Shown: positions 435-30,024 of the stretch, piece after piece
Layout: each line of letters opens with the position of its first letter
Position numbering within the stretch: the stretch's first letter is position 1
Assembly: GCA_016185145.1 (NCBI GenBank)
Contig: JACPOB010000091.1
Span: 15,788 to 47,787 of the forward strand
Origin: Rhodospirillales bacterium
Lineage (GTDB): Bacteria > Pseudomonadota > Alphaproteobacteria > Reyranellales > Reyranellaceae
Reading direction: 5' to 3'
DNA: 32,000 nucleotides
Program-made: the position numbers and the translations under genes
The notes under the pieces: model-generated
What the model was told of the DNA's origin: nothing
Database searches by the model: none
Seen by the model: the letters and a program-made list of their open reading frames with translations, nothing else

Positions 435-448
435 TTGACCCTGATCAA
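435..448. promoter_or_regulatory. FNR/FixK-type box TTGACCCTGATCAA
   Basis: Perfect TTGA-N6-TCAA palindrome in the divergent intergenic region. Its centre is about 46 nt from the crp/fnr ATG (488) and about 94 nt from the small-ORF ATG (347). Confidence 0.6.
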
Positions 449-487
449 ACTCTTGTTGTTTCGGCCGTGTGAGAATGGCCCGACAGG

Positions 488-1270
488 ATGAAGAAGATGA
501 TCGCGAGTACGTCCCTCGATCGAAAAGGCCCGTCGACGGTTGCCGTTGATCCTTGGGCGCCGACCAATCCATCGACAGGGAGATTGCCCCAGCTGCTGAC
601 CGACGAAGAGCGGGCGCAGTTGGCCATCATTGCGTCGGTGGTGCGCTTCAAGAAAGGCGATGAAATCTATCGAAGCGGCGGTCGCGCCGAGGCGATATTC
701 AACATCGTCAGCGGCGTGGTGAAATGTTATTGCGACAGCGACGCAAATCATATTGCGTCTTTTCTGTTCCCTAACGATGTGTTCGGCCTGTCCGCCGAAG
801 GCGTATATACGAATTCTGCCAGGGCGATAACGCCGGTTACGGCGTACAGACTCCCGACAGCCGCGCTGCGGGGCCGTCTGTCGAAAAGCGCCGTGTTGGG
901 CTATCACGTGATCTGCAAACTGTGCCAGGAACTACGTCAGGCGCAGCGCCACGCCTTCCTCCTCGCACAGCGTCATGCTGATGCGAAGATCGCCATGTTT
1001 ATCGAAATGCTGCGGCAGCTCCAGGTTGCCAAAGGTGGCTCCTCGACCGAGATCTACGTTCCGATGGATCGCTCGGATATCGGCGAGTACGTCGGACTGT
1101 CGCTCGCCGCAGTGAGTAGGACCTTTCGCAGTCTTGTCACGCACGGCATCATCCAAACTCGGGACCGTAGACATGTGAAGGTTGCCGATCGAGCGGCTTT
1201 CGAAAACATCGTGGCTGGCGGCTCGGCCCGGCGCGTTGGCCGAAGGGTGAAACGAACTTTGCGAACGTAA
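488..1270 (+). CDS. Crp/Fnr family transcriptional regulator (FixK-like, no N-terminal Cys cluster)
   Basis: cNMP-binding-type beta-roll (FKKGDEIYRSGGRAEAIFNIVSGVVK) followed by a C-terminal HTH (RSDIGEYVGLSLAAVSRTFRSLVTHGII). No FNR-type Fe-S cysteines. The recognition helix reads AAVSR rather than the E..SR of FNR/FixK. Confidence 0.9.
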   Translation: MKKMIASTSLDRKGPSTVAVDPWAPTNPSTGRLPQLLTDEERAQLAIIASVVRFKKGDEIYRSGGRAEAIFNIVSGVVKCYCDSDANHIASFLFPNDVFGLSAEGVYTNSARAITPVTAYRLPTAALRGRLSKSAVLGYHVICKLCQELRQAQRHAFLLAQRHADAKIAMFIEMLRQLQVAKGGSSTEIYVPMDRSDIGEYVGLSLAAVSRTFRSLVTHGIIQTRDRRHVKVADRAAFENIVAGGSARRVGRRVKRTLRT

Positions 1271-1509
1271 CATCCGTGCATCTTCCCTGCATTGGGCTAT
1301 CGCTCGGCCTGGTTCGAGGGTTGGAGCCTGGGGAACGCACTTGAATTCTCCTCTGACCGATGACGGCAACTCCAGGCAGCCAGCTCGTCGCATATCCAAC
1401 TTCCGCGCTTGCGACCCGACCAAGCTGTCCAAGCTATGAGCGGCAACGGACCTGTTTCTGCCCTTCCGTTTAGCTTCAGCAGCAGCTCGGTAGATGCGAG
1501 GGCCGACCA

Positions 1510-1704
1510 CAGGGACCCAATCGTGTATTCCGCGCGAGGGTGGGCATCTTCCCCAACAAGGCGGCCATCACTCAGCTCGTCGGCGCAATCCTGCTCGAAC
1601 AGAACGACGAATGGGCCGTCCAGCGCGGCCGTTACATCACTCTGGAAAGCATCGCGCCCGTCAGCGATGATCCTCTCGTCGGGTTGCCCGCTGCGGCTAC
1701 CTGA
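1510..1704 (+). pseudogene. IS256-family (Mutator-type) transposase, C-terminal remnant
   Basis: Manual translation 1540..1704 gives [54 protein letters not shown], the typical C-terminus of IS256-family transposases. An upstream stop and no N-terminal catalytic part mean this is a fragment only. Confidence 0.7.
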
Positions 1705-1922
1705 TCGATCCGGCTCTCGCTCGAGATCGTCATACTGACCAACGTCAGCTACGCCACGCTTCGGGAGTACGTCATGGGTCAAGCCAAAGGTCAAGGGCGG
1801 TTCTGCGGCGCGGCTCGACGGGGCTCGTCACAACCGCCCCGCTTGCAAGTGATAATCGCGTCCGCGGCTTCTCACACGCCAGCTTACCGCGCTGGACACT
1901 GTTTCAGCCAGGATTCCCTGAC

Positions 1923-4307: not shown

Positions 4308-5063
4308 TTAGAACCAAGTCCGCAGGCCGACCGTGAAGCGGACCTGCTGAGTCGGACCGCCGGCGGCACTGACGTAATCGGCGGTAGCGCCGTATTGGCC
4401 GAAATAGGTGATGCCGAGATAGGGCGCGAACTCTCGCGTTATTTCGTAGCGGAGACGCAGCCCCACATCGAGCTCCGAAAGCCCGGCGCCGACGTTCCGT
4501 GCCGGGTCGTCCTTGGTGTAGAAATTCATCTCGAACTGCGGCTGCAGGACCAGGCGCTGTGTGATGAAGAGATCGTAGCTGGCCTCCAGCCTGGCCGCGA
4601 GATGCCCCTCGCCGCTGACGTAGCCGAACGCGGAGACCTTGAAGAAGCCCGGCGCCAATCCCTGGATGCCGATGCCGCCCCAGCCGCGACTGGGCAACGA
4701 GTCCAAGTCCCATCGCACACCGACCAAAGCGTCGAAATAGGTCGTGATGGCACGGCCGTAAAACAGCTGCTGGATGCCGTCGTCCAGTTGGTTGTCGCTA
4801 TAACGGCCTTCGCTCAATAGCCAGATCTTGTTCTCGTCGGTGCCGACCCAGCCCGACGCCTCCCAGCGGAAAGTGTTGCCCTGGGCGAAGCCGAAGCGCC
4901 CTTCCAGCTGGTCGAACAGCAGATGGGCAAAGATCGCCTTGTCGAGCAACTGCGGCATGCCTTGTGGCTGGTCGGCGGTGGGCGTCTGTTGAGCGTGGGC
5001 ATTGCCCGCCAGCCCGGCGGCGAGCAGGACAACCGCGCAGAGCGCGGCGCGGAGCTTGGTCAT
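4308..5063 (-). CDS. copB: copper resistance protein B (outer-membrane CopB/PcoB family)
   Basis: Signal peptide (LLAAGLAGNAHAQQ) followed by a beta-barrel-type sequence ending in an aromatic residue (..GLRTWF). Its ATG overlaps the copA stop (ATGA). Confidence 0.85.
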   Translation of the reverse strand: MTKLRAALCAVVLLAAGLAGNAHAQQTPTADQPQGMPQLLDKAIFAHLLFDQLEGRFGFAQGNTFRWEASGWVGTDENKIWLLSEGRYSDNQLDDGIQQLFYGRAITTYFDALVGVRWDLDSLPSRGWGGIGIQGLAPGFFKVSAFGYVSGEGHLAARLEASYDLFITQRLVLQPQFEMNFYTKDDPARNVGAGLSELDVGLRLRYEITREFAPYLGITYFGQYGATADYVSAAGGPTQQVRFTVGLRTWF

Positions 5064-6910
5064 GATATGCGCACCTCGCGCATCATGCCCGTCTCCATGT
5101 GGTAGAGGAGATGGCAGTGGAAGGCCCAGCGGCCGGGCTCGTCGGCGCTCACCAGGAAGCTCAGCTTCTCACCGGGCTTGACCAGAATGGTATGCTTGTA
5201 CGGGCGGTATTCGCCTTGCCCGTTCTCCAGCTCGCTCCACACGCCATGCAGATGCATCGGGTGCTCCATCATGGTGTCGTTGATCAGGGTGAAGCGTACC
5301 CGCTCGCCGAGCCGAAGCGTGATCGGCGCGGCATCCGAGAATTTCGTGCCGTCGAAGCTCCACATGAAACGGTCCATGTTGCCCGTCAGGTGCAGCACGA
5401 TCTCACGCGTCGGCGGTCGCGGGTCGTTGCCGCGCTTGGCGTTCCGGAGGTCGGTCAAACGCAGCACTCGCCGGCCGTTGCCGTCGAGCCCGCCGCCCGC
5501 TTCGGCGAGACGGTTCCTTGGCGCCATGGCGACGTTGTCTACGCCGACACGGCCTTCGAGCCAGGTGGCAGCGTCTTGCCCGGACATGCCGGCCATCGCC
5601 CCTTGGCTCGGCGCCGCGCCACTCATGCCCGGCATGGCGGCATAATTGGGCGGCGTGGCCGTCGTCGGTCCATGCGTCATGCCGGGCATCGAACCGTGCT
5701 GCATTCCAGAACCCTGGTTCGTCCCCGGCACGGCGTGGCCCGTGTGGGCGTTGTTCGATGCGCCCCGCCCAGAGCTGCCGTGTCCCGAGCCTCCGTGTTC
5801 CATGCCCATGTCGACCATGGTGCGCATCGGCCGTGGATCCATCGGCGGGATCGCCGCTTGCATGCCGAGCTGCGGGGCCAGGGTGCCACGCGCGAACCCG
5901 GTGCGGTCCTGGGTCTGGGCGAAGATCGTGAAGGCGCGCGCCTGGCGCGGCTGGACGATCACGTCATAGGTCTCGCCCGGGCCGATTCGGAACTCATCGA
6001 CCGTGACCGGCACGACGTCGTTGCCGTCACTTTGCACCACGGTCATCGGCAAGTCGGGGATGCGCACATCGAAGATGCTCATGGTGCCGGCATCGATGAA
6101 GCGCAACCGCACCCGCTCACCAGGCCGAAACAGAGCCGTCCAGTTGGCCGCCGGCGGCTGGCCGTTCATGAGATAGGTGTAGGTCGCACCCGTCACGTCG
6201 AGAATGTCGGTCGGGCCCATACGCATCTTGGCCCACATCAGACGATCCTGGATCGTCGGGCCAAGGCCATCGCGCCTGACGTCGTTTATGAACGTGCCCA
6301 GCGTGCGCTGATTGTAGTTGTAATAGTCGGCGTCGAACTTGAGCTTACTGATGATGGTGAGAGGGCTCTCGTCGCTCCAGTCCGACAGCACGATCACATA
6401 GTCGCGATCGAAGGCCTGCGCAAAGCCGCCCTTGGGCTCGATGACCAGAGAACCGTAGACGCCGGTCTGCTCCTCGGCGCCATGCGCATGGTACCAGTAG
6501 GTGCCGCTCTGGCGTACGGGAAAGCGGTAGGTGAACGTCTGGCCCGGCGCGATGCCGTTGAAGCTGAAGCCCGGCACGCCGTCCATCGGCGAGGGCGTGC
6601 GGATGCCATGCCAATGGATCGACGTCGGGAAGGACAACCGGTTGGTGACCGCGAGCGTGACGGTCTCGCCTTCGCGCCACCGTAGGATCGGACCGGGGAC
6701 CTGGCCGTTGATTGCCGTTGCGGTCATGGTCCGGCCGGTGACGTTGAAGGGCAGTGGACCGATGTCGAGCTTGAACTCGGTGCCGCTCAAGACCTGTTGG
6801 GGCGCTCCGGCCAGGGCTGCGCGCCATGGCGGCACGGTAACCAGAGCACCCGCGGCAGCAGCTCCCTGGACGAAGCGTCGGCGGCCGACGCTCGGACGAC
6901 TCCCAGTCAT
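5060..6910 (-). CDS. copA: copper resistance multicopper oxidase CopA/PcoA, Tat-exported
   Basis: Tat motif GRRRFVQGAAAAG. Cu-site motifs HWHG, WYHAH, HPMHLHG and HCHLLYHMETGMM. Contains a Met/His-rich insert. I place the start at the ATG at 6910 (MTGSRPSV...) because it overlaps the stop of the upstream cusF-like frame (ATGA); the track ORF extends to 6964. Confidence 0.9.
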   Translation of the reverse strand: MTGSRPSVGRRRFVQGAAAAGALVTVPPWRAALAGAPQQVLSGTEFKLDIGPLPFNVTGRTMTATAINGQVPGPILRWREGETVTLAVTNRLSFPTSIHWHGIRTPSPMDGVPGFSFNGIAPGQTFTYRFPVRQSGTYWYHAHGAEEQTGVYGSLVIEPKGGFAQAFDRDYVIVLSDWSDESPLTIISKLKFDADYYNYNQRTLGTFINDVRRDGLGPTIQDRLMWAKMRMGPTDILDVTGATYTYLMNGQPPAANWTALFRPGERVRLRFIDAGTMSIFDVRIPDLPMTVVQSDGNDVVPVTVDEFRIGPGETYDVIVQPRQARAFTIFAQTQDRTGFARGTLAPQLGMQAAIPPMDPRPMRTMVDMGMEHGGSGHGSSGRGASNNAHTGHAVPGTNQGSGMQHGSMPGMTHGPTTATPPNYAAMPGMSGAAPSQGAMAGMSGQDAATWLEGRVGVDNVAMAPRNRLAEAGGGLDGNGRRVLRLTDLRNAKRGNDPRPPTREIVLHLTGNMDRFMWSFDGTKFSDAAPITLRLGERVRFTLINDTMMEHPMHLHGVWSELENGQGEYRPYKHTILVKPGEKLSFLVSADEPGRWAFHCHLLYHMETGMMREVRIS

Positions 6911-7397
6911 GAGTGACCTCCTGTGGCGGGCGCGATCGAGTCGATAAGGTATGCGCCGTCGCAAACCCGCTCCATCACGAAGCGCACGTGGGTGCCGGGC
7001 TTGATGGAGCCTGGGTCCACCGACGGTGCGACGGAAGGGTCCGTCATCATTGCCGGCCAGCCGATCCCTCGGGGGAGTGGTTCAGGGCCGGCATCGAGCC
7101 ATGGTCCATCGTGCTGTCGTCCATTCCACGCACTGTAGCCGGGGTCGCAGGGCTCGGTTGATGGCTCATCCCGCTCACGGATGCGGGGGCAGTTGGGCCG
7201 GCCTGCACGGTGCCATAGCCTTCACCCTCGCCGGCAAGGGCTGCGTTGCGCGGGATGCGTGAGGCATTCCCCAGATCGACCGCCAGCGGGGCAGAACCGG
7301 ACTGCGGCGGGACGACGACCAGAGCTTGGTCTGCGCAGGCGGCAAGGACAAGCAAGGACGAGCTCCAGAACAGCAGATGAAGTGAAGGAAGCTTCAT
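6907..7397 (-). pseudogene. CusF-like periplasmic copper-binding lipoprotein, interrupted by a frameshift at a homopolymer
   Basis: The N-terminal frame (start 7397) has a lipobox (LLVLAAC) and a Met/His-rich segment, and stops at 7047. The C-terminal frame reads IGWPAMMTDPSVAPSVDPGSIKPGTHVRFVMERVCDGAYLIDSIAPATGGHS* and ends in an ATGA overlap with copA. The two frames join if the G5 run at 7071..7075 (C5 on the coding strand) had one more base. Confidence 0.65.
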
Positions 7398-7458
7398 CGA
7401 AACTCTCGCAAAGAGATCAAACCAAAATTTACACAAGCCGCTTCTGCGCCGCCGCACA

Positions 7459-7472
7459 TTGATCCAGCTCAA
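7459..7472. promoter_or_regulatory. FNR/FixK-type box TTGATCCAGCTCAA
   Basis: Perfect TTGA-N6-TCAA. Its centre is about 68 nt upstream of the cusF-like start (7397, minus strand). That fits a class II site at about -41.5 with a short leader. Confidence 0.6.
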
Positions 7473-7569
7473 AGTGCCAGGGGGCGACCGTCGAAAATTC
7501 TAATCATGATCTAGGTGTCTCTGGGAGTCTCGGATGAGACAGACATTTGACGCCTCGGCAGTCTAGCCT

Positions 7570-7583
7570 TTGATCCAAGTCAA
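7570..7583. promoter_or_regulatory. FNR/FixK-type box TTGATCCAAGTCAA
   Basis: Perfect TTGA-N6-TCAA. Its centre is about 86 nt upstream of the ATG at 7663 (plus strand). The 16-mer TTGATCCAAGTCAAAG is nearly identical to the one at 7459. Confidence 0.6.
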
Positions 7584-7662
7584 AGCAGCGGCGGTCTTTG
7601 GCTGAAATGAAGGAGGGGTCCGACAACGGACGAGCTCAGACCAGTGAGACGGAGATATAGTC

Positions 7663-8382
7663 ATGATGATCGCCAGCAGAGCTATGCAGGCCGCGAGCTT
7701 GGCAATCGTGATTGGCGTGTGCGGCTTGGCGTTGCCGGCGTCGGGTCAACAGACGCCACCGGCAACCGGCACCCAACCCAAGCCCCCGATGCAGCCCGGC
7801 CCGAGCATGGGCGCGCAGATGCAGCAGCAAGGCATGGAACACGGTCGCATGGGCCAGGGCATGGGCATGGAGGGCAAAGGCATGGGCGGTGCCAACATGC
7901 AGAACATGCAGACGCCGGGCGCTTGCTCCGGCGGACAATGCGGTGGCATGGAAGGCTCAGCGATGCAGGGTCAAATGCCCGGCATGGGACCGAGCGGAGT
8001 GCCGGCGCAAAGCGTGGGCCCGCAGATGATGCAGATGATGATGCAGGGCCATATGGCCGATCTGCCATGGGACCACATCGAGGGACGGATTGCCTACTTG
8101 CATGCCGAGCTGCAGATCACCGAGGCCCAGATGCCGGCGTGGACGGAATTCGCCAATGTGCTGCGTGCCAACGCCAAGCGGATTGCGGAAGTACAAAAGG
8201 CGCCGCAGCGAACGACGACGACCGCAGCCGACAGGATGGATGATCAGGAGCGTTGGCTGACTGCGCGGTTGGAGAGCGTGCGGGCCTTGAAACCTGCCTA
8301 CGTCAAGCTCTACGCTGCGCTCGACGACAAGCAGAAGAAGATCGCTGACGAACTTCTCGCCCCTCACATGGGCATGAGGTAA
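7663..8382 (+). CDS. periplasmic Met-rich protein with C-terminal Spy/CpxP-like (LTXXQ-type) domain
   Basis: Signal peptide, then a Met/Gln/Gly-rich stretch (MQPGPSMGAQMQQQGMEHGRMGQGMGMEGKGMGG...MMQMMMQGHM). The C-terminus (LQITEAQMPAWTEF...ERWLTARLESVRALKPAYVKLYAALDDKQKKIADELL) resembles alpha-proteobacterial Spy/CpxP-family proteins. RBS GGAGA sits 7 nt upstream. Confidence 0.75.
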   Translation: MMIASRAMQAASLAIVIGVCGLALPASGQQTPPATGTQPKPPMQPGPSMGAQMQQQGMEHGRMGQGMGMEGKGMGGANMQNMQTPGACSGGQCGGMEGSAMQGQMPGMGPSGVPAQSVGPQMMQMMMQGHMADLPWDHIEGRIAYLHAELQITEAQMPAWTEFANVLRANAKRIAEVQKAPQRTTTTAADRMDDQERWLTARLESVRALKPAYVKLYAALDDKQKKIADELLAPHMGMR

Positions 8383-8425
8383 GAGCACATCACGTGCAAG
8401 CTTCATGGTGTACCGTGCCCCCCGG

Positions 8426-8489
8426 CGATATCGCGTCCTCGCCTGACGCAAATGAGCATTCTCCCCCGCCAGGCGGGGGCGCGATATCG
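8426..8489. repeat. nested inverted repeat between the Spy-like gene and hupS (possible terminator or attenuator)
   Basis: The outer 10-bp arms CGATATCGCG (8426..8435) and CGCGATATCG (8480..8489) are exact reverse complements. They enclose an inner GC hairpin, CCCCCGCC (8463..8470) with GGCGGGGG (8472..8479). No T-tract follows. Confidence 0.4.
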
Positions 8490-8557
8490 TTCCATTCCAG
8501 GCTTGTCTTCCGCGCGAGCGCAAACAAGCGGCGAAGCGCGTGAGGGAGGATGGCACC

Positions 8558-9526
8558 ATGCGAGCCCGTCCGTCGGTGTACGAGGAACTGCGAAACCAGG
8601 GCGTGTCGCGACGCGGCTTCCTGAAGTTCTGCGGCTACATGAGTTCGGTGTTGGCGTTGCCGGCGGGCAGCACCGAGGCGATCGCGCAAGCGCTTACTTC
8701 CAAGCCGCGTCCGAGCGTGATTTGGCTGTCGGTGCAAGAATGCACGGGCTGCAGCGAGTCTCTGCTTCGTTCGTTCGAGCCAACGCTCGAGAGCCTCATT
8801 CTCGATTCCATTTCGTTGGACTACCATCATGTGTTGCAAGCCGCCGCCGGCGAAGCCGCCGAAGCGGCTCGCGACCAGGCAATCGAGCAGAACTGGGGCA
8901 AGTACTTTCTGATCGTCGACGGCTCGATTCCGGGCAAGGACGCAGGCGCACGCTCGACCACCGGCGGCAAGGCCGGGCTTGCGCTGGTGCGCAATGCAGC
9001 CCAAGGAGCGGCGGTGATTGCGGCCGTGGGCACGTGCGCGACTTTTGGCGGCATCGGAGCCGCGGCGCCCAATCCGTCGGGAGCCTTCGGCGCCGCGGAC
9101 GCACTCGGCGACCTGGTCGCCGCCGGCAAGGTGAAAGCGCCGATCGTCAACGTTCCCGGCTGTCCGCCGGTACCCGAGGTGATCACTGGCCTCGTTACCT
9201 ACTACCTGACCTATGGGTCGATTCCTGCTCTCGACGATCTGCGGCGGCCCAAGGTCTTCTTCGGGAAGACCGTCCATGACGACTGCCCGCGGTTGCCGTT
9301 TTTCGAGCGTCAGCAGTTCGCCCGCAGCTTCGACGACGAAGGCGCGCGCAAGGGATGGTGCCTCAAGGAGCTTGGTTGCAAGGGCCCCCTCACCTTCAAC
9401 GCCTGCACCACCGTCAAGTGGAACCAAGGCAGCAGTTTTCCGATGTATTCCGGGCATGGCTGCCTGAGCTGCGCCCAGCCGAATTTCTGGGATCGGCCCG
9501 GCGGCTTTTACACCAAGCCGTTCTGA
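8558..9526 (+). CDS. hupS: [NiFe]-hydrogenase small subunit, Tat signal, no C-terminal membrane anchor
   Basis: Tat motif SRRGFLKF. Proximal cluster motifs ECTGCSES, GTCATFGG and PGCPP. Distal and medial cluster region HDDCPR...WCLKELGCKGP...NACTTVKWN...GHGCLSC. The protein ends about 17 aa after the last Cys (FYTKPF*). I place the start at the ATG at 8558, with RBS GGGAGGA 7 nt upstream; the track GTG is at 8540. Confidence 0.9.
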   Translation: MRARPSVYEELRNQGVSRRGFLKFCGYMSSVLALPAGSTEAIAQALTSKPRPSVIWLSVQECTGCSESLLRSFEPTLESLILDSISLDYHHVLQAAAGEAAEAARDQAIEQNWGKYFLIVDGSIPGKDAGARSTTGGKAGLALVRNAAQGAAVIAAVGTCATFGGIGAAAPNPSGAFGAADALGDLVAAGKVKAPIVNVPGCPPVPEVITGLVTYYLTYGSIPALDDLRRPKVFFGKTVHDDCPRLPFFERQQFARSFDDEGARKGWCLKELGCKGPLTFNACTTVKWNQGSSFPMYSGHGCLSCAQPNFWDRPGGFYTKPF

Positions 9527-9565
9527 AGAAACGAGAGGCCGGCCTTCTGACGGGGAGAACGTTCG

Positions 9566-11290: not shown

Positions 11291-11338
11291 AACGGATGAG
11301 CTCTCATGGCAGGCGAATCGGTTGTGTGGAACGAGAAA

Positions 11339-18389: not shown

Positions 18390-18392
18390 GCG

Positions 18393-18860: not shown

Positions 18861-18874
18861 TTGAGGTACATCAA
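18861..18874. promoter_or_regulatory. FNR/FixK-type box TTGAGGTACATCAA
   Basis: Perfect TTGA-N6-TCAA. Its centre is about 67 nt upstream of the GTG start of the HupH_C-like gene (18800, minus strand). Confidence 0.6.
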
Positions 18875-20355: not shown

Positions 20356-20727
20356 TTACGTCTTGCTGTCCGGGGGATGCTTCTCGCCATGCGGACCGAT
20401 CGTGCACTTCGACCCGGTCGCTGTCGCATCGTCGATGATGCCGTTTCGATCAACGGTGAAGTTGATCATGCAGTTCCTCGCCTGGAAAAAGACCTGAGAC
20501 TTCGGGCCCGTCACCGCTTGGTTGGTGATCATGTAGCCGATTGCCCTGCCGCCATCGGCTGTAGGGTAGTCGTGATGCGGTTTACCCCAGGATTGGATGA
20601 GATGAGCCGAACTGTGTCCCACCCAGTCGTGGACGTTGAGATCCTTGACGGTTCCCGTCGACATTGGCCCACACGCAGCTAGCGCCATGGTGGCGATCGC
20701 AATGATCAAGGAATTGCTAACTTTCAT
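20356..20727 (-). CDS. hypothetical lipoprotein
   Basis: MKVSNSLIIAIATMALAAC lipobox. RBS GGGAGA 7 nt upstream of the ATG at 20727. No family recognised. Confidence 0.6.
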   Translation of the reverse strand: MKVSNSLIIAIATMALAACGPMSTGTVKDLNVHDWVGHSSAHLIQSWGKPHHDYPTADGGRAIGYMITNQAVTGPKSQVFFQARNCMINFTVDRNGIIDDATATGSKCTIGPHGEKHPPDSKT

Positions 20728-20814
20728 GACTGGGTCTCCCACTTATGCCTCAAGATCGATTGATCAAAAGCAACCAACGATTGCCTAAACATATGCGCCA
20801 CGACAGCCGATGCT

Positions 20815-20828
20815 TTGAGATGGATCAA
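20815..20828. promoter_or_regulatory. FNR/FixK-type box TTGAGATGGATCAA
   Basis: Perfect TTGA-N6-TCAA. Its centre is about 94 nt upstream of the lipoprotein ATG (20727, minus strand). A relaxed match TTGATCAAAAGCAA lies at 20760..20773. Confidence 0.55.
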
Positions 20829-21038: not shown

Positions 21039-22097
21039 TTAAGCGTCGTCCGGCATGCCTGACCGCGTAGCCCTTAACTGATCATGGGACAGACGAAAGT
21101 AGCTGACGAGTTCTTTCCCGGATTCGTCGCAGCGGGAAAAGGGTGTGCCATGAAATAGGTCGGCAAGGGTTCGATCTCGCAACAACGCGGCGGTGTCGGC
21201 GCTTACCGGGACAATGACCTTATCTTCGGCAGCCATAAGATCCTTGCCAGCCTGCTCGAGGCGATGAGCGATGTTCACGGCATCTCCTACAACCGTGTAA
21301 TTTACACGTCCTGGCGAGCCGATGTTGTCGACGAGAACGGGCCCGGTGTGGATGCCGATCCGGATCCTGATCGAGTGCTTGCCTGCACGCCGTCGTGTAG
21401 CGTTGTCAGCTTTCAAAGCGGAAACGATGGCGAGAGCGGCGCGCACTGCGGAATCAGCCTGATCGTCACTTCCTGAGAGGCTGCCCCACGTCGCCATGAC
21501 GGCATCACCGATGAACTTGTCGATGAGGCCGCCTTCTCGCTCGATGCAGGCTCCGAGGATTGCAAAATGCTGATTGAGCATGTTGGACACTTCGCCCACA
21601 GGCGAACCGCGAGTGATCTGCGAGAAGTGGACGATATCGGTGAACAGCACGGTTACCAGCTGCTTTCGCGAAACCAACGCCGCCTCACCTGCCTGCATGA
21701 TCCGGACAATGAGGCCTTTCGGCACGTATGCGCCAAACGATTTGAGGGCCGCTCGCGCCCGGTCCAGGCTGTAGCCTGCGTGGTCTATCTCGCGGACCCG
21801 CGATGATTGATAGTGGACTTGGTCGAGATCCAGGCGCCCCATCGAGTTTGCAGCTGAGGTGATTGTGCCGATAAGCCTGCTCACGCGGAAACTGATGACC
21901 GCTACCAGCAGGAACGCGAAAGTCAAGGTTGCAGCGCCGACCAGAGCGCCTGTTCCGAGGTTTTGAAAGGGGCCGGTGAACTCATCGACCGGCAGGTATC
22001 GACCGATGAACCCAGGATTCAGGGCCGTAGCCGGAGACGAGGCGATGCACGAACAACCATCGCCGGCCGGAAACCTTGGCAACATGCCCGAGGTCAT
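21039..22097 (-). CDS. class III adenylate/guanylate cyclase with TM and HAMP-like linker
   Basis: A hydrophobic segment (ALVGAATLTFAFLLVAVISF) is followed by a cyclase core (VTVLFTDIVHFS...FIGDAVMATWG...IRIGIHTGPV..GSPGRVNYTVVGDAVNIAHRLE). Only about 60 aa precede the TM segment, so the usual sensor module appears to be missing. Confidence 0.8.
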   Translation of the reverse strand: MTSGMLPRFPAGDGCSCIASSPATALNPGFIGRYLPVDEFTGPFQNLGTGALVGAATLTFAFLLVAVISFRVSRLIGTITSAANSMGRLDLDQVHYQSSRVREIDHAGYSLDRARAALKSFGAYVPKGLIVRIMQAGEAALVSRKQLVTVLFTDIVHFSQITRGSPVGEVSNMLNQHFAILGACIEREGGLIDKFIGDAVMATWGSLSGSDDQADSAVRAALAIVSALKADNATRRRAGKHSIRIRIGIHTGPVLVDNIGSPGRVNYTVVGDAVNIAHRLEQAGKDLMAAEDKVIVPVSADTAALLRDRTLADLFHGTPFSRCDESGKELVSYFRLSHDQLRATRSGMPDDA

Positions 22098-22708: not shown

Positions 22709-23737
22709 TCACCGACTGAGATCGAGAACAACGCGCCCCTCGATCGCGCCGGCATGCATGCGGGAGAACACATCGTTGATGTTTTCGAGCCGCGCGGCGG
22801 CGACCGTAGCGTGGACCTTGCCAGCGCCGGCAAAAGCGAGCGCCTCCTGGAGATCGAGGCGAGTGCCGACGATCGAGCCCCGCACCGTAACTCCGTTCAG
22901 CACCATGTCGAAGATCGGCAGCGGAAAGCTTCCCGGCGGCAGGCCGGTGAGCGACACCGTGCCGCCGCGCCGGACCATGCCGAGCGCCTGTTCGAAGGCC
23001 TTCGGGGACACCGCTGTGACTAGGACGCCATGCGCGCCGCCGATCTCTTTCTTCAGGAAGGCCGCGGGATCGGTGGTCCTGGCGTTGACCGTCACCGTCG
23101 CGCCAACCCGCTCGGCCAACGCGAGCTTGTCGTCATCGATGTCGACGGCAGCCACGTTGAGGCCCATCTCGCGCGCATATTGAACAGCCATGTGGCCGAG
23201 ACCGCCGATACCAGAGATCACCGTCCAATCGCCAGGCTTGGTATCGGCAACCTTGAGGCCCTTATAGACTGTCAGGCCGGCGCACAGCACCGGCGCGATC
23301 TCAACGAACCCGATGTTGGCGGGGAGATGGCCAACATAGTTGGGGTCGGCGACCACATACTCGGCAAAGCCGCCGTTGACCGAATAGCCGGTGTTGAGCT
23401 GGGATTCACACAAGGTCTCCCAGCCGCCGAGGCAATGCTCGCAATGACCGCAGGCGGTGTAGAGCCATGGCACGCCGACCCGGTCGCCCTCCTTCACATG
23501 CCTGACGCCCGAACCGACGCCTGAGACGAAGCCGACGCCTTCATGGCCGGGAATGAATGGCGGCTTGGGCTTCACCGGCCAGTCGCCCTCGGCGGCATGC
23601 AGGTCGGTGTGGCAGACGCCGCAGGCTTCGATCTTGACCTGGATCTGACCGGGACCGGGCTCCGGCACCGACGCATCTTCGATGGCGAGGGGCTTGCGGA
23701 ACTCACGAACAACCGCGGCTTTCATGGTTCTTGGCAT
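22709..23737 (-). CDS. adhP: zinc-dependent alcohol dehydrogenase (AdhP-like, propanol-preferring type)
   Basis: [14 protein letters not shown], structural zinc site [15 protein letters not shown], and NAD fold ISGIGGLGH. 342 aa. Confidence 0.9.
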
Positions 23738-23923
23738 CGTGGCTTTCCCTTTCGGATCGTGGTTCGGATGACGCTAGCCGCTGACACACCGGATCGTGCG
23801 CCGTCGAGGAAGAGCTGATCGACTCCTAGCCGGCGTCACCGCAGGCGCCGCACGCGCTGGTGCAGGACGTACGGCAGCGCGAGATCGCTACGGCCCATAT
23901 CGCCTCGGCGCGCGTCTGGCGCT

Positions 23924-23937
23924 TTGAGCCACATCAA
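23924..23937. promoter_or_regulatory. FNR/FixK-type box TTGAGCCACATCAA
   Basis: Perfect TTGA-N6-TCAA. Its centre is about 193 nt upstream of the adhP ATG, and no convincing gene lies closer. Confidence 0.45.
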
Positions 23938-24219
23938 TGCAAGTCGCTCCCTCCGGCGCGGAGAAGACCATCGACTTCACGGGCTTCTCCCGCCTCTTCG
24001 TGTCGCTCTGCAGGCAAGTTCGTGCGTCACACGCCCATGACGACCGAGGCCGGCATCACCCGCAGATGGCTTTTCACCCGCCTGACACCAGGCACGTTCT
24101 CGCATAAGCCCGCTTTTCAATGTGCCTTGGCGGCGCTTCCCTGACGCAGGGCGCTGCATTTTGTGGCATCTGGCACCTCTCTAAGTTAACAGGATCGCGC
24201 CAAATGCCATTGCCGATCT

Positions 24220-24233
24220 TTGATGTATGTCAA
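24220..24233. promoter_or_regulatory. FNR/FixK-type box TTGATGTATGTCAA (orphan)
   Basis: Perfect TTGA-N6-TCAA, 16 nt beyond the stop of the 24249..24590 ORF. Only weak small ORFs lie downstream on the minus strand (starts at 24169, 24159 and 24105). Confidence 0.4.
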
Positions 24234-24248
24234 ATTCAATCCGAGAGC

Positions 24249-24590
24249 CTAGTTCGGATCAGATCGTGTTCTGCTATCGCTCGCGCTGATTTCGATCGCA
24301 CGCACGCCTCCGCTGCGCACGGAATCGCAGGTCGTTCCACCCCGATTGTTTCGCTGACTGGTCTGTGCACTGAAAGATGATCTCTTTGGCATAACAGGCA
24401 CGACTTCGGCGAAGTCTGCGTGAAGGTTCCAATGAGCAATACCTCTCAAGGACGCGAATCGGCTTCGCGCGCGCTTTTCGGCTTCCTCGACGCTTGCAGC
24501 CCTTACGACGATTACCTCCTGCGGCGCCTTGAACGGGTGGCCGTCGGAGCTGAGGAGACATTTGAAAAAGGTTACCTTGTAGCGAGCCAT
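24249..24590 (-). CDS. small conserved hypothetical protein
   Basis: The N-terminus MARYKVTFFKCLLSSDGHPFKAPQEVIVVRAASVEEAEKRARSRFASLRGIAHWNLHADFAEV resembles a roughly 70-aa family I recall from Bradyrhizobium and Rhodopseudomonas-type genomes (..YK..LSSDGH.F....R.I.......A......W.LHAD..E). The C-terminal approximately 45 aa are low-complexity. Confidence 0.5.
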   Translation of the reverse strand: MARYKVTFFKCLLSSDGHPFKAPQEVIVVRAASVEEAEKRARSRFASLRGIAHWNLHADFAEVVPVMPKRSSFSAQTSQRNNRGGTTCDSVRSGGVRAIEISASDSRTRSDPN

Positions 24591-24644: not shown

Positions 24645-24658
24645 TTGATCTTGGTCAA
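24645..24658. promoter_or_regulatory. FNR/FixK-type box TTGATCTTGGTCAA
   Basis: Perfect TTGA-N6-TCAA. Its centre is about 61 nt upstream of the ATG at 24590 (minus strand). Confidence 0.6.
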
Positions 24659-24761: not shown

Positions 24762-25947
24762 GTCGTCTGGAACTGAAGTTCATTACATTATAGGAGAGCG
24801 CTCTGGGCCTTGTAAGGAGAGCGCTGATGGCAAATGGACGTGCGAGGGGTCGGCCGATCGCGCCGTTGGAGTTGAGTGCTGAGGAGCGGGCCTATCTGGA
24901 GCGGCAAGTGCGTCGCCATCGCGTCGCCCGGTCGCTGTCCGAGCGGTGCCGCATCATTCTACGGTGTGCGGACGGATCGCCCAGCAAGTCCATCGCGACC
25001 GAGCTCGGCCGTGCACGAACACACGGTTGGCAAATGGCGGCGCCGCTTCTTGAAGGATCGCTGCGATGGCCTGTTTGACGAGGCTCGTCCAGGCCGGCCG
25101 CGCACTATCGACGATGATCAGGTTGCGGCCGTGATCGAGCAGACGTTGCGCACCACGCCGGCCGACGCGACGCACTGGTCGATCCGTTCGATGGCGGCGG
25201 AGACCGGCTTTTCCCACACCACGATCCGCCGGATGTGGGCGGCGTTCGGCTTGCAGCCGCACCGCAGCCAGACGTTCAAGCTGTCGGACGATCCGCTGTT
25301 CGTCGACAAGGTGCGCGATATCGTCGGCCTTTACCTCTCGCCGCCCAACCGCGCGCTTGTTCTCAGCATTGACGAGAAAAGCCAGATCCAGGCCCTGGAT
25401 GCGAACAGCCGGTCTTGCCGATGATGCCCGGTGTCCCTGAACGGCGGACGCACAACTACGTGCGACACGGGACGACCTCGCTGTTCGCCGCCCTCGATGT
25501 TGCCTCAGGCTTCGTCATCGGCAAGTGCTACAGGCGCCACCGGGCGGCTGAGTTCTTGAACTTCCTCAGAGAGATCGACGCTCAGGTCCCTGAAGGGCTC
25601 GACGTCCATATCGTCTTGGACAACTATGCCACCCACAAGACGCCCAAGATCAAGGCGTGGCTCGCCCGCCGGCCGCACTATCACGTACACTTCACGCCGA
25701 CTTCGGCATCATGGATCAATCAGGTCGAGCGCTGGTTTGCAGAGCTCACCAGGAAGCGGCTCCGACGCGGCGTTCATACCTCGGTCAGGCAACTGCAAGC
25801 CGACATCCGCGCCTTCATCGACCGGCACAACCAAAACCCCAAGCCCTTCAAATGGACCAAGTCCGCCGACCAAATCCTCGCCTCGGTCAAGCGCTTCTGC
25901 CAGAAGACACAGAAGACTTTATGCAGCGAACTTTAGATTCAGAGGAC
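24762..25947 (+). mobile_element. IS630-family insertion sequence (about 1.19 kb), TA target-site duplication, transposase inactivated
   Basis: Imperfect terminal inverted repeats. 24759..24788 (CTAGTCGTCTGGAACTGAAGTTCATTACAT) against the reverse complement of 25921..25950 (CTAGTCCTCTGAATCTAAAGTTCGCTGCAT) matches 23/30 positions. TA is present at 24760..24761 and at 25948..25949. Confidence 0.75.
24827..25936 (+). pseudogene. IS630-family DDE transposase, split over three frames by two single-base indels
   Basis: Frame 1 gives the HTH part (..RCRIILRCADGSPSKSIATELG). Frame 2 gives VHEHTVGKWRRRFLKDRCDGLFDEARPGRPRTI...[11 protein letters not shown]. Frame 3 gives [31 protein letters not shown]...VLDNYATHK...[12 protein letters not shown]. 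The shifts lie near 25009..25010 and 25400..25401. Confidence 0.8.
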
Positions 25948-26145
25948 TAGATTGAACTGTCCAATTCGGAACTGAGACGCAAGGATAAGAACATTAGGCT
26001 CTAGCCGAAGCCGCAACGAGTCTCGCAGGGGACACCCGCGACAAAAACGAGACCGCGGGGGCGGTTGGTGCTGGCGGGCAAAGAGCGAGGCCTCGTCGGT
26101 TCGCTCGGCCAATCGGCAGCAGGACCTCGGCTGAAGGAGATGGCA

Positions 26146-28477
26146 ATGGAAGCCCCCGGCGCCCCCGGCATCCCACCGACTTGGACGAGCAGCGACAAGG
26201 ACATGATTGGCACCAGCCTTGGGCCGGCCCGCTTGTGGTTCACGATCGGGCACGGCATCGTCAATGAGGTCTACTGGCCGCGGGTGGACTTGCCGCAGAT
26301 TCGCGATCTCGGCTTCATCGTCGCCGATGGCCGCGGCTTCTGGAGCGAAGTCAAGCGCGGGGCCGACTACGCGGTCTCGACGCCTTCTCCCGGCGTTCCC
26401 GCCGTCCAGATTCTGCACCGCTACGACCGCTTCGAGCTTGCACTGCGCATCGTGCCCGACTCGGAACGGGACGTGCTGCTGGTGGAGATCGAGCTCACCG
26501 GCGGCGACGACTTGGCACCCTATGCGCTGCTGGCGCCGCACCTTGGCGGCACCGGCTGGGACAACCGGGCCGACGGTTTCACCAACCGCGGCCGCGTCGT
26601 GCTGTGCGCCGATCAAGGCCCGTTTGCCCTGGCCCTGGCAGCCGCCGATCTCGACCAACGCGATGGCTGGCAGGGCGCGAGCGCCGGCTATGTTGGAACG
26701 AGCGACGGTTGGCAGGACTTCGCCCGCAATGGCGCCATGACCTGGTTCCATGGCAAGGCCGGGCCCGGCAATGTCGCGCTGATGGGTCGGTTGCCGAGGC
26801 GCGCCGTGCTGGCGCTCGGATTCGGCAGCGGCAAGGAGGCGGCCGCGACCCTCGCCATTTCGGCCCTGAGCCAGCCCTTCGAGACAGCATGGCACCAGCA
26901 AGTCCGCGAGTGGCAGGCCTGGCACGCCGACAAGGCTCATACCCGCGGCATGCCGCGCAAGCATGCCGAGCAGATCCATCTCTCGGCGATGGTGCTCAAG
27001 GCGCATCAGGACAAGACCTATCCAGGCGCCATGGTCGCCAGCCTCAGCGTCCCCTGGGGCAACAGCACGGACGACATCGGCGGTTACCATCTCGTCTGGC
27101 CGCGCGACCTGGTGCAGAGCGCAGGTGCGCTGCTCGAATTGCGCGCGATCAAGGAGGCGCAAGACGTGCTGCGCTACCTGATCGCGACGCAGCTCGATGA
27201 CGGCCGCTGGGCGCAGAACCAGTGGCTGGGCGGCACGCCCCGCTGGGGCGGCGTCCAGCTCGACGAGGTCGCCTTTCCTGTCCTGCTCGCCGCGGCGCTC
27301 GGCGAGCGCGACGCCCTCGGCGGCATCGGGGCACGGGATATGGTCCGCCGGGCGCTGACCTACCTGGTGCGGCAGGGGCCGGCGACGGAGCAGGATCGCT
27401 GGGAAGAGACGGCGGGCATCAACACCTTCACGCTTGCGGTCGTCATCGCGGCGCTGGTTGCCGGGGCCGAGTTCCTCGATGAGGCCGAACGGGGCGACGT
27501 CCTGGCACTTGCCGACGACTGGAACGCGCACATCGAAGAGTGGTGCGTCGCCTCGGAAACGGCGCTCAGCGCGGCGCACGGCGTCGGGCCGTACTACATC
27601 CGGGTCGCCCCCGCGCGCGTCATCGCCGACCGCGCGGCGCTTCAGGACATCGTGCCCCTCAAGAACCGCGAGCGTGACCCGGGGCTGCCGGCGGCAGAGC
27701 AAGTTTCGACCGACTTCCTGCAGCTGGTGCGGTTCGGGCTGCGCAGCCCGGAAGACCCGCAGGTGCGTAACACGGTCCGCCTGGTGGACGCATTGCTCCG
27801 GACAGAAACGCCGAGCGGGCCGGTCTGGCGCCGCTACGGTGGAGATGGTTACGGGGAGCACCCGGACGGGCGGCCCTACGACGGAACGGGCCAGGGTCGG
27901 CCCTGGCCGCTGCTGGCCGGAGAGCGGGGCCACTATGCCCTGCTGTCAGGAGAGGATGCCGAGCCCTATCTGCGGATCATGGCCGCCACCAGCGGTCGGT
28001 TGGGCTTGATCCCCGAGCAAGTGTGGGACGGCGATCCGCTGCCGCGGGTTGGCCTCCAGCCCGGCCGACCGTCGGGTTCGGCGATGCCTCTGGTCTGGGC
28101 GCACGCCGAGTTCGTCAAGCTGGCGGCGAGTGTCGCCAAGGGGGTGCCGGTGGACCGGCCCGAGGCGGTGTGGCTGCGCTACGCTGGCCGCCGGCCCAGC
28201 CCCAGCCGCGCCCACTGGTCCTCGCAGATGCCCGTGGCGAAAATCCGGCCGGGGGCAGACTCTGCGTGTGCTCTGTACCGTACCGACGGTCGCGCGTTGG
28301 AGGATCGATGGCCAGCAGGAGGTGTTCGAGACTCCGACGAGATCAGGCGCTTTCGGATTACATGTCGCCGACCTGGCAACCGAAGCCCTGGAGACCGGCC
28401 GGAGCGTCCGTGTTGCGCCCTACGCTTGGCCTAAGCAGGAATGGATCATCACCGTCGGACCGCCGGAGGAAAGCTGA
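26146..28477 (+). pseudogene. glycoside hydrolase family 15 glucoamylase/glucodextranase-like, single +1 frameshift in a G5 run (possibly a sequencing error)
   Basis: N-terminal beta-sandwich region plus an (alpha/alpha)6 catalytic region (YHLVWPRDL, QLDEVAFPVLL, DRWEE, GRPWPLLAGERGHY, MPLVWAHAEF). After 28251..28255 the conserved C-terminus (QTLRVLCTVPTVARWRIDGQQEVFETPTRSGAFGLHVADL...) continues in the next frame to 28477. I place the start at the ATG at 26146, 6 nt after AAGGAG. Confidence 0.8.
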
Positions 28478-28501: not shown

Positions 28502-28515
28502 TTGATGCACATCAA
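28502..28515. promoter_or_regulatory. FNR/FixK-type box TTGATGCACATCAA
   Basis: Perfect TTGA-N6-TCAA. Its centre is about 97 nt upstream of the ATG at 28606 (plus strand). Confidence 0.55.
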
Positions 28516-28605
28516 GGAGTAAACGCCAGTCGAGTCCACGATGGGGAGCGTGCGCGGTGTCGCTCGCGACGCAGGCGGCAGGAACAGGAGATTGAGAGGG
28601 GCTCG

Positions 28606-28836
28606 ATGAAGTTGGCGATGATGACGGTGATGCTTCTCGCCATCAGCGTGGGAGGCTGCGCCAGTCCTGGCAATGATGGTGCAACGGGGGCGGCGCCTCA
28701 ACGCTATATGGGGGTATCGCCAAATGTGAACGGCACCTGGAACGGCGCGACGACCTCCTCAACCATGGTGATGCAACGGATCAAGCAGGATAACGCCAGG
28801 CGCGCGATCAGCGGTGGCGCTAACATCCAGTACTGA
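28606..28836 (+). CDS. small hypothetical lipoprotein (76 aa)
   Basis: MKLAMMTVMLLAISVGGC lipobox, with RBS GAGAGGGG upstream. The track ORF (28441) has a 5' extension overlapping the GH15 3' end. Confidence 0.55.
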   Translation: MKLAMMTVMLLAISVGGCASPGNDGATGAAPQRYMGVSPNVNGTWNGATTSSTMVMQRIKQDNARRAISGGANIQY

Positions 28837-29165
28837 CTGATCGCTGCCGACCCCAGAGCAATAGGAGAGGGGCGATAGGCAGGTGAAGCTTTGGCCTTCT
28901 AAACCGAACGTTGCTCGTTTTGGCTCGCCGGCAATGACTACAATGGCCTCTACCTGAGTTTTTTGCGGCTAGCAGCGCATCAAGAGGCTCAATCGTGGGT
29001 TTGAACCTTTCCGCTGTTGAGCGGGCCGCATTTTAAAGAGCGCGCCAATCGGCCGAGGTCTCACGGGCTCAGGCCAGCGACACTGATGGTGGTTTGCGCT
29101 GTGCCATTCTTGGGAACAAGCGGGCGTGAACGGTGTAAGGTTCGGATGACTTGAGGGAGTTCGGC

Positions 29166-29918
29166 ATGAAGCGTGCGAGATTCGCAGCGTGCGCGCTGGC
29201 GATATCCGTTTTTGGCCTTGCGGCCGCGGAGTCGGCGACGGCGGCCGACCCCACGGTGGAACGCGGCAAGTACCTGGTAACGGTCGGCGGCTGCCACGCC
29301 TGCCACACGCCGGGATACTTCTTTGGCCAGGTTGACATGACCCGCGCGCTCGGCGGTTCAGAAGTTGGGTTCGAGGTTCCGGCGATGGGCGTGTTCTATG
29401 GTTCCAATCTGACGATGGATAAGGCGACAGGCCTCGGCGACTGGAGCGACGCACAGATCGCGGCCGCGATGACGACGGGCCGGCGCCCGGATGGACGAAA
29501 GCTCGCCCCCGTCATGCCGTGGCAATCCTTGGCGGCCCTCAGCCGGAGCGACGTCAGCGCGATCATCGCCTATCTGCGGAGCCTGCCCCCGGTTCAGAAC
29601 AAGGTGCCCGGCCCGTTTGGCCCTGCGGCAATCCCCGGCTCGTGGGTCCTCAAGCTCGTGCCGCCCCAGGCGCAAAGTGCCGCCGTTGGTGCCACGCTCG
29701 CCGAACGCTGGTGTACCAGATGCCATGACATTGAGCGTACGGCGCAACCTCGATCCGCCGAAGGCGTGCCGAGCTTCAAAGCCATCGTGGCTAAGCCGCA
29801 GATGACGCCGGCAGAACTCGACAGCCACCTGTCCTCGACACACACGGGCATGCCGGACTTCCAGCTCAGCCTTTACGAACGCAGCTTGCTCATCGCCTAT
29901 ATCCAAAGCCTGCGCTAG
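29166..29918 (+). CDS. di-haem c-type cytochrome
   Basis: Signal peptide and two CxxCH motifs (GGCHACH, WCTRCH). The first domain has the GKYL....C..CHT...G....N.T.D..TG.G.W......A...G pattern of dehydrogenase-associated cytochromes c. The start at 29166 has GAGGGAG 6 nt upstream. Confidence 0.85.
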   Translation: MKRARFAACALAISVFGLAAAESATAADPTVERGKYLVTVGGCHACHTPGYFFGQVDMTRALGGSEVGFEVPAMGVFYGSNLTMDKATGLGDWSDAQIAAAMTTGRRPDGRKLAPVMPWQSLAALSRSDVSAIIAYLRSLPPVQNKVPGPFGPAAIPGSWVLKLVPPQAQSAAVGATLAERWCTRCHDIERTAQPRSAEGVPSFKAIVAKPQMTPAELDSHLSSTHTGMPDFQLSLYERSLLIAYIQSLR

Positions 29919-30010
29919 CCCCTTATCGCAATTGCCGCGCAGCGTTCGCCCTCTCTGGAGCGGGCCGCCCGCAGAGCACCCTGCGACGCCAAATCATAGC
30001 TCTGGCCACT

Positions 30011-30024
30011 TTGAGGTAGATCAA
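30011..30024. promoter_or_regulatory. FNR/FixK-type box TTGAGGTAGATCAA
   Basis: Perfect TTGA-N6-TCAA. Its centre is about 250 nt upstream of the ppk2 ATG (30268), with no closer convincing gene. It differs from the box at 18861 at one spacer position. Confidence 0.45.

Follow-up and report, generated by a model that had tools for sequence, protein, structure and literature searches.

The DNA analysed here, 32,000 nucleotides (nt) referred to below as the window, comes from an uncultured soil Rhodospirillales bacterium represented by a metagenome-assembled genome (MAG; GenBank assembly GCA_016185145.1, contig JACPOB010000091.1, positions 15,788 to 47,787 of the forward strand). The window carries a gene for a FixK-like regulator of the Crp/Fnr family at its left edge (497..1270, plus strand), a copper resistance cluster, an approximately 11 kb run of [NiFe] hydrogenase genes, and genes for the alcohol dehydrogenase AdhP, two lipoproteins, a di-haem cytochrome c, PPK2 and a metal ATPase. 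An earlier reading made from the letters alone, called here the sequence-only reading, had found ten copies of the FNR/FixK-type motif TTGA-N6-TCAA between these genes, described them as perfect palindromes and proposed that they tie the genes to a single oxygen-responsive regulator. A pattern search of the window recovered the same ten exact sites, with the same sequences, at positions 435, 7459, 7570, 18861, 20815, 23924, 24220, 24645, 28502 and 30011 (boxes 1 to 10).

The boxes were placed on a gene map drawn from Pfam and NCBIfam matches, translations, gene calls on two identical public contigs (L010 at the left end and L093, 3.7 kb, inside the window) and the conservation of small open reading frames (ORFs) in homologous loci. 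The non-coding share of this map is 5,753 nt (18% of the window) and contains all ten boxes, as had been claimed; uniform placement would produce this with a probability of 3.5e-8. Two baselines were used for enrichment, namely shuffles of the window and a Markov model of its own intergenic DNA. In 100 dinucleotide shuffles the mean number of exact sites was 0.25 and the maximum 2, and a first-order model of the intergenic DNA predicts 0.068. The ten observed sites thus amount to about 40 times the expectation for the whole window and about 150 times that for intergenic DNA, while coding DNA holds none. With one mismatch permitted, 20 sites were found where 7.0 are expected.

The term perfect palindrome proved too strong, since the symmetry of the boxes is confined to the 4-nt arms. 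A T directly precedes the box in eight of the ten cases, in agreement with the earlier count of "most". The half-site profile, T-T-G-A-(T>C>G)-C, matches that of published boxes such as those recognized by FixK2 of Bradyrhizobium diazoefficiens before nap (TTGATCCAGATCAA) and nosR (TTGATCCAGCGCAA), where transcription starts 40.5 bp from the symmetry axis and the consensus is TTG(A/C)-N6-(T/G)CAA (PMC5582078). Whether FixK/FNR boxes are defined by that consensus or by TTGA-N6-TCAA, ten exact examples lie in the intergenic, promoter-containing DNA of the window. Because the flanks of the ten sites share no similarity past 1-3 nt, the sites are not copies of a repeat. The orientation of TTGAG versus TTGAT half-sites relative to the downstream gene is inconsistent among the ten boxes, and Rfam, tRNA and terminator scans of the window returned nothing relevant.

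Seven or eight of the ten boxes have a start codon 61-98 nt from the box centre, and these distances fall into two groups, 61.5-68.5 and 86.5-97.5 nt, which reproduces the values given previously. Box 1 (435..448, TTGACCCTGATCAA; extended form AAGTTTGA-N6-TCAAACT) lies 94.5 nt from a divergent small ORF starting at 347 on the minus strand and 46.5 or 55.5 nt from the regulator gene on the plus strand. Box 2 (7459..7472, TTGATCCAGCTCAA) is 68.5 nt from a 116 amino acid (aa) Met/His-rich ORF that leads copA-copB, and box 3 (7570..7583, TTGATCCAAGTCAA) is 86.5 nt from the Met-rich Spy/LTXXQ gene that heads the hydrogenase cluster. Box 4 (18861..18874, TTGAGGTACATCAA) is 67.5 nt from a HupH_C gene (18393-18800, minus strand). 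On its plus side lies a membrane-protein gene (about 18938-19289) that is frameshifted over three frames with an internal stop and that has an intact homologue of 125 aa at L013 4868-5245; unless the assembly is in error here, it is a pseudogene.

Box 5 (20815..20828, TTGAGATGGATCAA) stands 94.5 nt before a 123-aa lipoprotein gene (20356-20727, minus strand). A one-mismatch site, TTGATCAAAAGCAA, occurs at 20760-20773, 55 bp from box 5 and with its centre 39.5 nt before the lipoprotein start, and the two may form a tandem-site promoter. Box 6 (23924..23937, TTGAGCCACATCAA) is 193.5 nt from adhP (22709-23737, minus strand), and box 7 (24220..24233, TTGATGTATGTCAA) has no convincing downstream gene. 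Both lie in a 510-nt stretch (23738-24248) in which no convincing gene and no Rfam family was found; the target of box 7 may be a small RNA or peptide that escaped annotation, or the box may be a relic. Box 8 (24645..24658, TTGATCTTGGTCAA) is 61.5 nt from a small gene on the minus strand (24249-24590, encoding MARYKVTFFKCLL...), and box 9 (28502..28515, TTGATGCACATCAA) is 97.5 nt from a 76-aa lipoprotein gene (28606-28836), downstream of which is the di-haem cytochrome c gene (29166-29918), an arrangement with which the gene calls on L093 agree. Box 10 (30011..30024, TTGAGGTAGATCAA) is 102.5 nt from a 48-aa ORF (30120-30266) that is followed by the gene for PPK2 (30268-31077) and, overlapping it, the gene for an HMA-domain metal ATPase (31067 onward, cut at the window end). 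As judged from these spacings, the placement of most boxes fits class II Crp/Fnr promoters, as the sequence-only reading had suggested. Its linkage of adhP, cytochrome c, ppk2 and the metal ATPase to boxes is weaker, these genes having long leaders or coming second in a possible operon.

The regulator (257 aa from 497, or 260 aa from 488) has the N-terminal cNMP-binding-like beta-roll and the C-terminal Crp-type helix-turn-helix of the Crp/Fnr superfamily (Pfam cNMP_binding PF00027, E 1.4e-11; HTH_Crp_2 PF13545, E 4.5e-11; both above gathering scores). Its closest solved relative is Bradyrhizobium FixK2 (4I2O, phmmer E 5.5e-22) and the next is FNR, so that the family assignment made for the left-edge gene was correct. 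The top NCBIfam model is FixK (NF050806), which scores 97.5 bits against a cut-off of 300 and so falls short of orthology, and the Fnr model reaches 76 of the 228 bits that its cut-off demands; on these scores we place the regulator in a clade separate from the FixK equivalogs. Its phosphate-binding cassette, FGLSAEGVYTNSARA, resembles that of FixK2 and lacks the Glu and Arg that we take to be needed for binding cyclic AMP (cAMP). There is no Cys in residues 1-79, and the FNR-type N-terminal cysteine cluster is therefore absent; the protein is thus not a direct oxygen sensor of the FNR type, and oxygen sensing of its own cannot be assumed. The FixK subgroup is defined by the absence of an Fe-S cysteine motif (PMC5582078), and the regulator has both this absence and its closest similarity to FixK.

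The window regulator is 100% identical to a protein of a Rhodospirillales MAG. Its recognition helix reads LSLAAVSR, compared with LTLETVSR in FixK2, and so keeps the Leu, Ser and Arg. S210 and R211 are invariant across 120 homologues, a GPxIxAVDPW motif near the N terminus is conserved in the clade, and at least 90% of the homologues share a cysteine of the dimerisation helix (C146). Almost all of the homologues come from soil metagenomes and from MAGs such as those of Xanthobacteraceae, and none is specifically named; a plasmid collection contained no homologue at E<1e-30. An AlphaFold2 model built from the 120-sequence alignment had a mean predicted local distance difference test score (pLDDT) of 59.5 and was confident in the DNA-binding domain alone, too poor for a fold search or for placing the conserved Cys.

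The divergent gene across box 1 encodes a conserved helical protein of 53 aa (186..347, minus strand; ELNIKYYRRLLKTETE..KRKTIAKLLAEEEAKL). It belongs to a family of 53-64 aa proteins with the pattern ELNIK[HY]Y..LLKTETD..KR.TIA.LLAEEE.KL, members of which were found by tblastn next to every regulator homologue, in each case with a box in front. Its 42 homologues all bear the name hypothetical protein, and neither Pfam nor NCBIfam gave a match. We compared the DNA around nine regulators of 62-78% identity (L001-L009), a sister locus (L094) and one further locus (L095), and the module of regulator, box and small ORF is present in every one. The module box has the form (A)GTTTGA-N6-TCAAACT and lies 58-70 nt from the regulator gene and 81-95 nt from the small-protein gene, which is divergent from the regulator gene in all of these loci except L009.

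Boxes are dense in several of these loci as well, with six in 20.7 kb of L002, five in 11.9 kb of L006 and eight in 20.8 kb of L009, and the distances in L006 (61.5, 61.5, 65.5 and 72.5 nt) show the same grouping as in the window. The genes near the boxes are typical of hypoxia or persistence and encode universal stress proteins (Usp), CBS-BON proteins and a phasin, and a HemN gene comes after a box-linked Usp gene; in the vicinity are genes for PhaC, an acetoacetyl-CoA reductase-like protein, a P-type ATPase and PEPCK. Three loci (L003-L005) carry a FixL/FixJ-like pair and a canonical FixK (recognition helix LTIETISR) 8 kb from the homologous regulator, together with AckA, Pta, a nitroreductase and a phosphoketolase (Xfp), and L009 contains a second, canonical FixK. 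The earlier assumption that one regulator serves all of the sites is not supported, and related genomes have this FixLJ-FixK set close to the homologous regulator. Conjugative transfer genes adjoin L006, and in L018-L020 similar boxes occur with no regulator of the clade within 10 kb.

The island extends beyond the window. Contig L010 matches positions 1-2105 with 100% identity and reaches 9.3 kb further left, where another copB-copA cluster and a CusF gene are found; both have a box in front of them, at distances of 82.5 and 54.5 nt (L010 5647 and 7607). Window and L010 together hold at least 12 boxes in about 41 kb, and copper genes are linked to a box three times (window 7459, L010 5647 and L010 7607). 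The sister island L094 is 92-96% identical in nucleotide sequence and retains boxes 1, 2 and 3 and the CusF box with substitutions solely in the N6 spacers; box 2 is identical, and in box 3 both substitutions fall inside N6 and leave the arms unchanged. Intergenic identity to L094 is about 93%, too close for a discriminating footprint, and the comparison shows just that the arms are spared. Two additional boxes in L094 lie beside a DUF3141 gene. An indel of about 107 nt separates the two islands (window 3598/3599, L094 6555-6663) in a DUF2939-like gene downstream of copB, which, from this alignment, appears to be disrupted in the window. The 14-mer TTGAGCTGGATCAA or its complement recurs in the window, L015, L018-L020 and L094.

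The cop cluster (4308..7397, minus strand), assigned from Pfam matches and translations, consists of the 116-aa ORF (7047-7397), the multicopper oxidase CopA (5060-6964) and CopB (4308-5063). The 116-aa secreted product had been called cusF-like; neither Pfam nor NCBIfam gives it a CusF domain match, and it is simply Met/His-rich. From 7663 to 18389, genes identified by Pfam, NCBIfam and translation follow one another on the plus strand behind box 3: the Met-rich LTXXQ gene, the hydrogenase small subunit (8555-9526), the large subunit (9566-11290), a haem-c-LTXXQ protein (11306-12100), then HypC, HypA, HypB, HypD, a HycI-type protease, HypF and HypE; HupH is encoded on the other strand. No terminator-like site was found between the LTXXQ gene and the small subunit (8382 to 8555). 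The small subunit is Tat-exported and has no C-terminal anchor, and the cassette has no cytochrome b gene. Its proximal-cluster motif is the standard ECTGCSE and not the CTCC form; we take ECTGCSE to mark an O2-sensitive hydrogenase and CTCC the O2-tolerant form, and expression at low oxygen would therefore make functional sense.

The haem-c-LTXXQ protein is secreted and combines a conserved haem-c motif of the CxxCH type (CAMCH) with an LTXXQ/Spy-like domain at its C terminus, and it may be the periplasmic redox partner of the hydrogenase. Homologues are found at L013 12750-13586, L014 5349-6221, L016 8732-9460, L017 2894-3682, L018 12866-13579 and L041 12758-13591. The hydrogenase cassette itself is conserved in many metagenomic contigs (L013-L021, L041) and, in several contigs unrelated to each other, adjoins copper-handling genes (window 4308-8382, L013 2498-9841, L014 3-2039, L021 3910-6515, L018 9166-9618), among them CopA/CopB, a Cu-ATPase, Met-rich Spy-like proteins and a Tat-signal Cys-rich protein. 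A gene for MCRA oleate hydratase also lies near the cassette in L018-L020.

Considering the abundance and placement of the motifs, the family of the regulator and the conservation of the module, we think it likely that the ten motifs are operator sites of a dimeric Crp/Fnr activator of the FixK type within a compact regulon island, the signal for which is probably oxygen limitation. In this model a FixK-type dimer would bind the boxes and activate class II-like promoters, centred near -41 with a leader of 20-55 nt at most of the cargo promoters. Since the regulator gene shares the conserved box with the divergent gene for the 53-aa protein, it would itself be under box control, either through autoregulation or from an upstream FixK. 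The cargo would comprise the Tat-exported, standard-type and presumably O2-sensitive [NiFe] hydrogenase with its maturation genes, two cop clusters and CusF, and further AdhP, two lipoproteins, the di-haem cytochrome c, PPK2 and the metal ATPase. Oxygen limitation would be relayed by a cascade resembling FixLJ-FixK or by oxidation of a cysteine of the regulator, not by an iron-sulfur cluster of the FNR type. We favor this signal because the homologous islands hold hallmark hypoxia genes and have a FixLJ neighbor, because the small subunit has ECTGCSE in place of CTCC, and because the closest described system, the lxa locus of Burkholderia cenocepacia, is induced experimentally by low oxygen. 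The binder could be the local regulator, a canonical FixK elsewhere in the genome, or both in a cascade.

Several observations weigh against this interpretation. Boxes 6, 7 and 10 lack a clean class II geometry relative to a convincing gene, ppk2 for example starting 250.5 nt from box 10 with the called 48-aa ORF in between, and the -10-like hexamers at the offset expected for a -41.5 site are weak (GAGAAT, GTAAAT, TGAAAT, CGATAT). The regulator has no known oxygen-sensing cofactor site. The position of Glu196 of FixK2 is Ala in the window regulator and in most of the 120 homologues, with Glu or Ser in some; we take the recognition-helix triad L195, E196 and R200 of FixK2 (the E--SR of FNR) to contact DNA, and the specificity of the regulator may therefore differ from the canonical box. 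Finally, the closest hydrogenase cassettes, those of L013 (93% small-subunit identity) and L014 (87%), have no box before their Spy-like and small-subunit genes even with one mismatch allowed. The wiring of the hydrogenase to boxes thus belongs to this island lineage, where the cassette is boxed at both ends unlike in those two relatives, and not to the cassette. A relic with two mismatches, TTGATCGAGATGCA, at L013 20351-20364 lies 66.5 nt before the HupH start and is homologous to box 4 (67.5 nt in the window), a hint that the site was gained in one lineage or has decayed in another. Similarly, the adhP-copA-copB operon of Sphingobium plasmids, whose adhP is 78% identical in nucleotide sequence to that of the window, has no box even with one mismatch allowed, and the boxes therefore did not arrive with adhP.

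It is possible, if not what we expect, that the boxes are recognized by a canonical FixK or FNR whose gene lies in another part of the genome, and that the island regulator is one of its targets, with another specificity or in a second tier, as FixK1 is to FixK2. The predominance of Ala at the Glu196-equivalent position in the clade would agree with this, as would the box in the promoter of every homologue, which a cascade target would have, the canonical FixK (ETISR) and FixLJ 8 kb away in L003-L005, the second canonical FixK in L009 and the boxes of L018-L020 that have no clade regulator within 10 kb. Yet the density of boxes peaks right around the clade regulator in several unrelated genomes, the Ser-Arg of the helix is invariant, and no canonical FixK or FNR was seen in the 41 kb of island examined.

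We consider it rather unlikely that the regulon responds to a signal other than oxygen, such as nitric oxide (through an NnrR/Dnr-type regulator, which uses the same box), copper or redox stress, or energy starvation and stationary phase. The lack of an O2-sensing cluster in the regulator, the strong conservation of C146, the three box-linked copper promoters and the company that the hydrogenase cassette keeps with copper genes in other genomes could all be read in this way, and PPK2, the glucoamylase and the storage-polymer genes suggest a programme of starvation or dormancy. Against nitric oxide, the island has no denitrification genes and the top family matches of the regulator are FixK, FNR and FnrL, not NnrR or Dnr; more generally, the HemN, Usp, AckA-Pta and Xfp genes and the FixLJ neighbor of the homologous islands match the lxa locus.

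A regulon of the cAMP-CRP type, fed by a cyclic nucleotide from a cyclase encoded in the island, is very improbable. The regulator does have a Pfam cNMP_binding domain, and the window encodes a membrane-anchored class III nucleotide cyclase with a Guanylate_cyc domain (21039-22097, minus strand), but the boxes are of the TTGA and not the TGTGA type, the cyclase gene has no box, and the FixK2-like phosphate-binding cassette lacks the Glu and Arg that bind cAMP; a link between cyclase and regulator is unlikely because the cNMP pocket lacks these residues. The idea that the motifs arose by chance, or that they belong to a dispersed repeat or a mobile promoter cassette and regulate nothing, has next to no probability left and is effectively refuted: the recurrence of TTGAGCTGGATCAA in several loci might suggest a repeat, but this 14-mer is close to published functional FixK2 boxes, none of the 100 shuffles reached ten matches, the flanks are unrelated, and every site is intergenic at promoter distances.

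The gene list of the sequence-only reading omitted the nucleotide cyclase and a GH15 glucoamylase (26065-28434). Between box 8 and the glucoamylase gene lies an IS630-family transposase (24827-25936, HTH_32 and DDE_3 in two frames); a search for the inverted-repeat ends of the element gave no clean ends. Related IS630 transposases (48-53% aa identity) adjoin the regulator in L003-L005, and the gene calls of L002 and L094 include HTH_32/DDE_3 transposases as well. The protein encoded behind box 8 (24249-24590) is conserved in its N-terminal 63 aa or so alone and has eight homologues, none of them in the plasmid collection. One of these, of 67 aa, stands in an apparent operon with genes for a Crp/Fnr regulator, DUF302, the homologue itself and a cytochrome c.

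Among described systems, we regard the lxa locus of B. cenocepacia J2315 as the closest known analogue and, by this comparison, as the same kind of object. It comprises 50 genes over 50.7 kb, with 17 inverted repeats in its intergenic DNA whose 4-bp arms are 6 bp apart (TGA-N6-TCA) and an embedded CRP/Anr-related regulator; low oxygen induces it up to 240-fold, and it encodes a zinc alcohol dehydrogenase, cytochrome c, a cation ATPase, AckA/Pta, PhaC and universal stress proteins (PMC3721108). The island described here is likewise a compact, contiguous cluster that has many FNR/Anr-type motifs between its genes and encodes a Crp-family regulator of its own. The window itself has the zinc alcohol dehydrogenase, cytochrome c and cation ATPase in common with lxa, and the homologous loci add universal stress proteins, PhaC, acetoacetyl-CoA reductase, AckA, Pta, the nitroreductase and PEPCK. 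The two differ in that lxa belongs to a betaproteobacterium and the window to an alphaproteobacterium, and in that the regulator here is FixK-like, from an uncharacterised clade whose members are always accompanied by a small protein. The cargo differs too, being mainly a periplasmic [NiFe] hydrogenase with a full maturation set, two cop clusters, PPK2 and the GH15 glucoamylase; hydrogenase is not mentioned in the text of the lxa paper (PMC3721108). Induction by low oxygen has been demonstrated for lxa, whereas for the island it is inferred.

The FixLJ-FixK2(-FixK1) system of B. diazoefficiens offers the closest solved relative of the regulator, the same consensus, near-identical boxes and the lack of an Fe-S motif, and a FixLJ-FixK set adjoins the homologous regulator in L003-L005. 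Post-translational control acts on FixK2 through the oxidation of one of its cysteines (PMC5582078). The regulator is only distantly similar to FixK2, however, with Ala for Glu196, the GPxIxAVDPW motif of the clade and a cysteine in the dimerisation helix instead of Cys183 of FixK2, and the FixK2 regulon is spread over the genome whereas the targets in the window are packed into one island. In Rhizobium leguminosarum the hypBFCDEX genes have an Fnr-type (FnrN) promoter, so that [NiFe] accessory genes are under micro-aerobic anaerobox control (PMC3534401). This is an alphaproteobacterial precedent for anaerobox control of hydrogenase maturation genes. FnrN differs as an Fe-S sensor of the FNR type, and the hydrogenase as a membrane-bound HupSL with the cytochrome b HupC, in place of which the window cassette has the haem-c/LTXXQ protein and no cytochrome b gene. 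Class II FNR promoters of Escherichia coli share with the boxes a two-fold symmetric site of the TTGAT-N4-ATCAA type, and the spacing seen here would be compatible with centring at -41.5; E. coli FNR senses O2 directly through Cys20, Cys23, Cys29 and Cys122, which are absent from the window regulator. New in the present island are the lineage of its host, the clade to which the regulator and its small partner belong, and a cargo that consists of a periplasmic hydrogenase with no cytochrome b, two cop clusters, PPK2 and GH15.

More tentatively, it is interesting to speculate that the uncharacterised, soil-wide FixK-like clade and its obligate partner of 53-64 aa constitute a portable hypoxia or redox switch that recruits new cassettes by means of FixK-box promoters and travels with insertion sequences and conjugative elements, its input coming from the partner or the helix cysteine and not from an Fe-S cluster. 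The recruits in this genome would be the O2-sensitive periplasmic hydrogenase and the copper defences.

The island does not represent a new regulatory principle but is a counterpart of known low-oxygen gene islands. It provides a concrete and testable regulon for an uncultured soil Rhodospirillales lineage, in which a FixK-type switch appears to coordinate H2 oxidation, copper defence, fermentation-type alcohol metabolism and the use of polyphosphate and glycogen. If this is true, the concept of a low-oxygen persistence island would extend from the Burkholderia lxa locus to soil alphaproteobacteria, the scavenging of a trace gas (H2) and copper tolerance would be tied to hypoxia, and an uncharacterised FixK-like clade with a conserved small partner would be flagged for experimental study.

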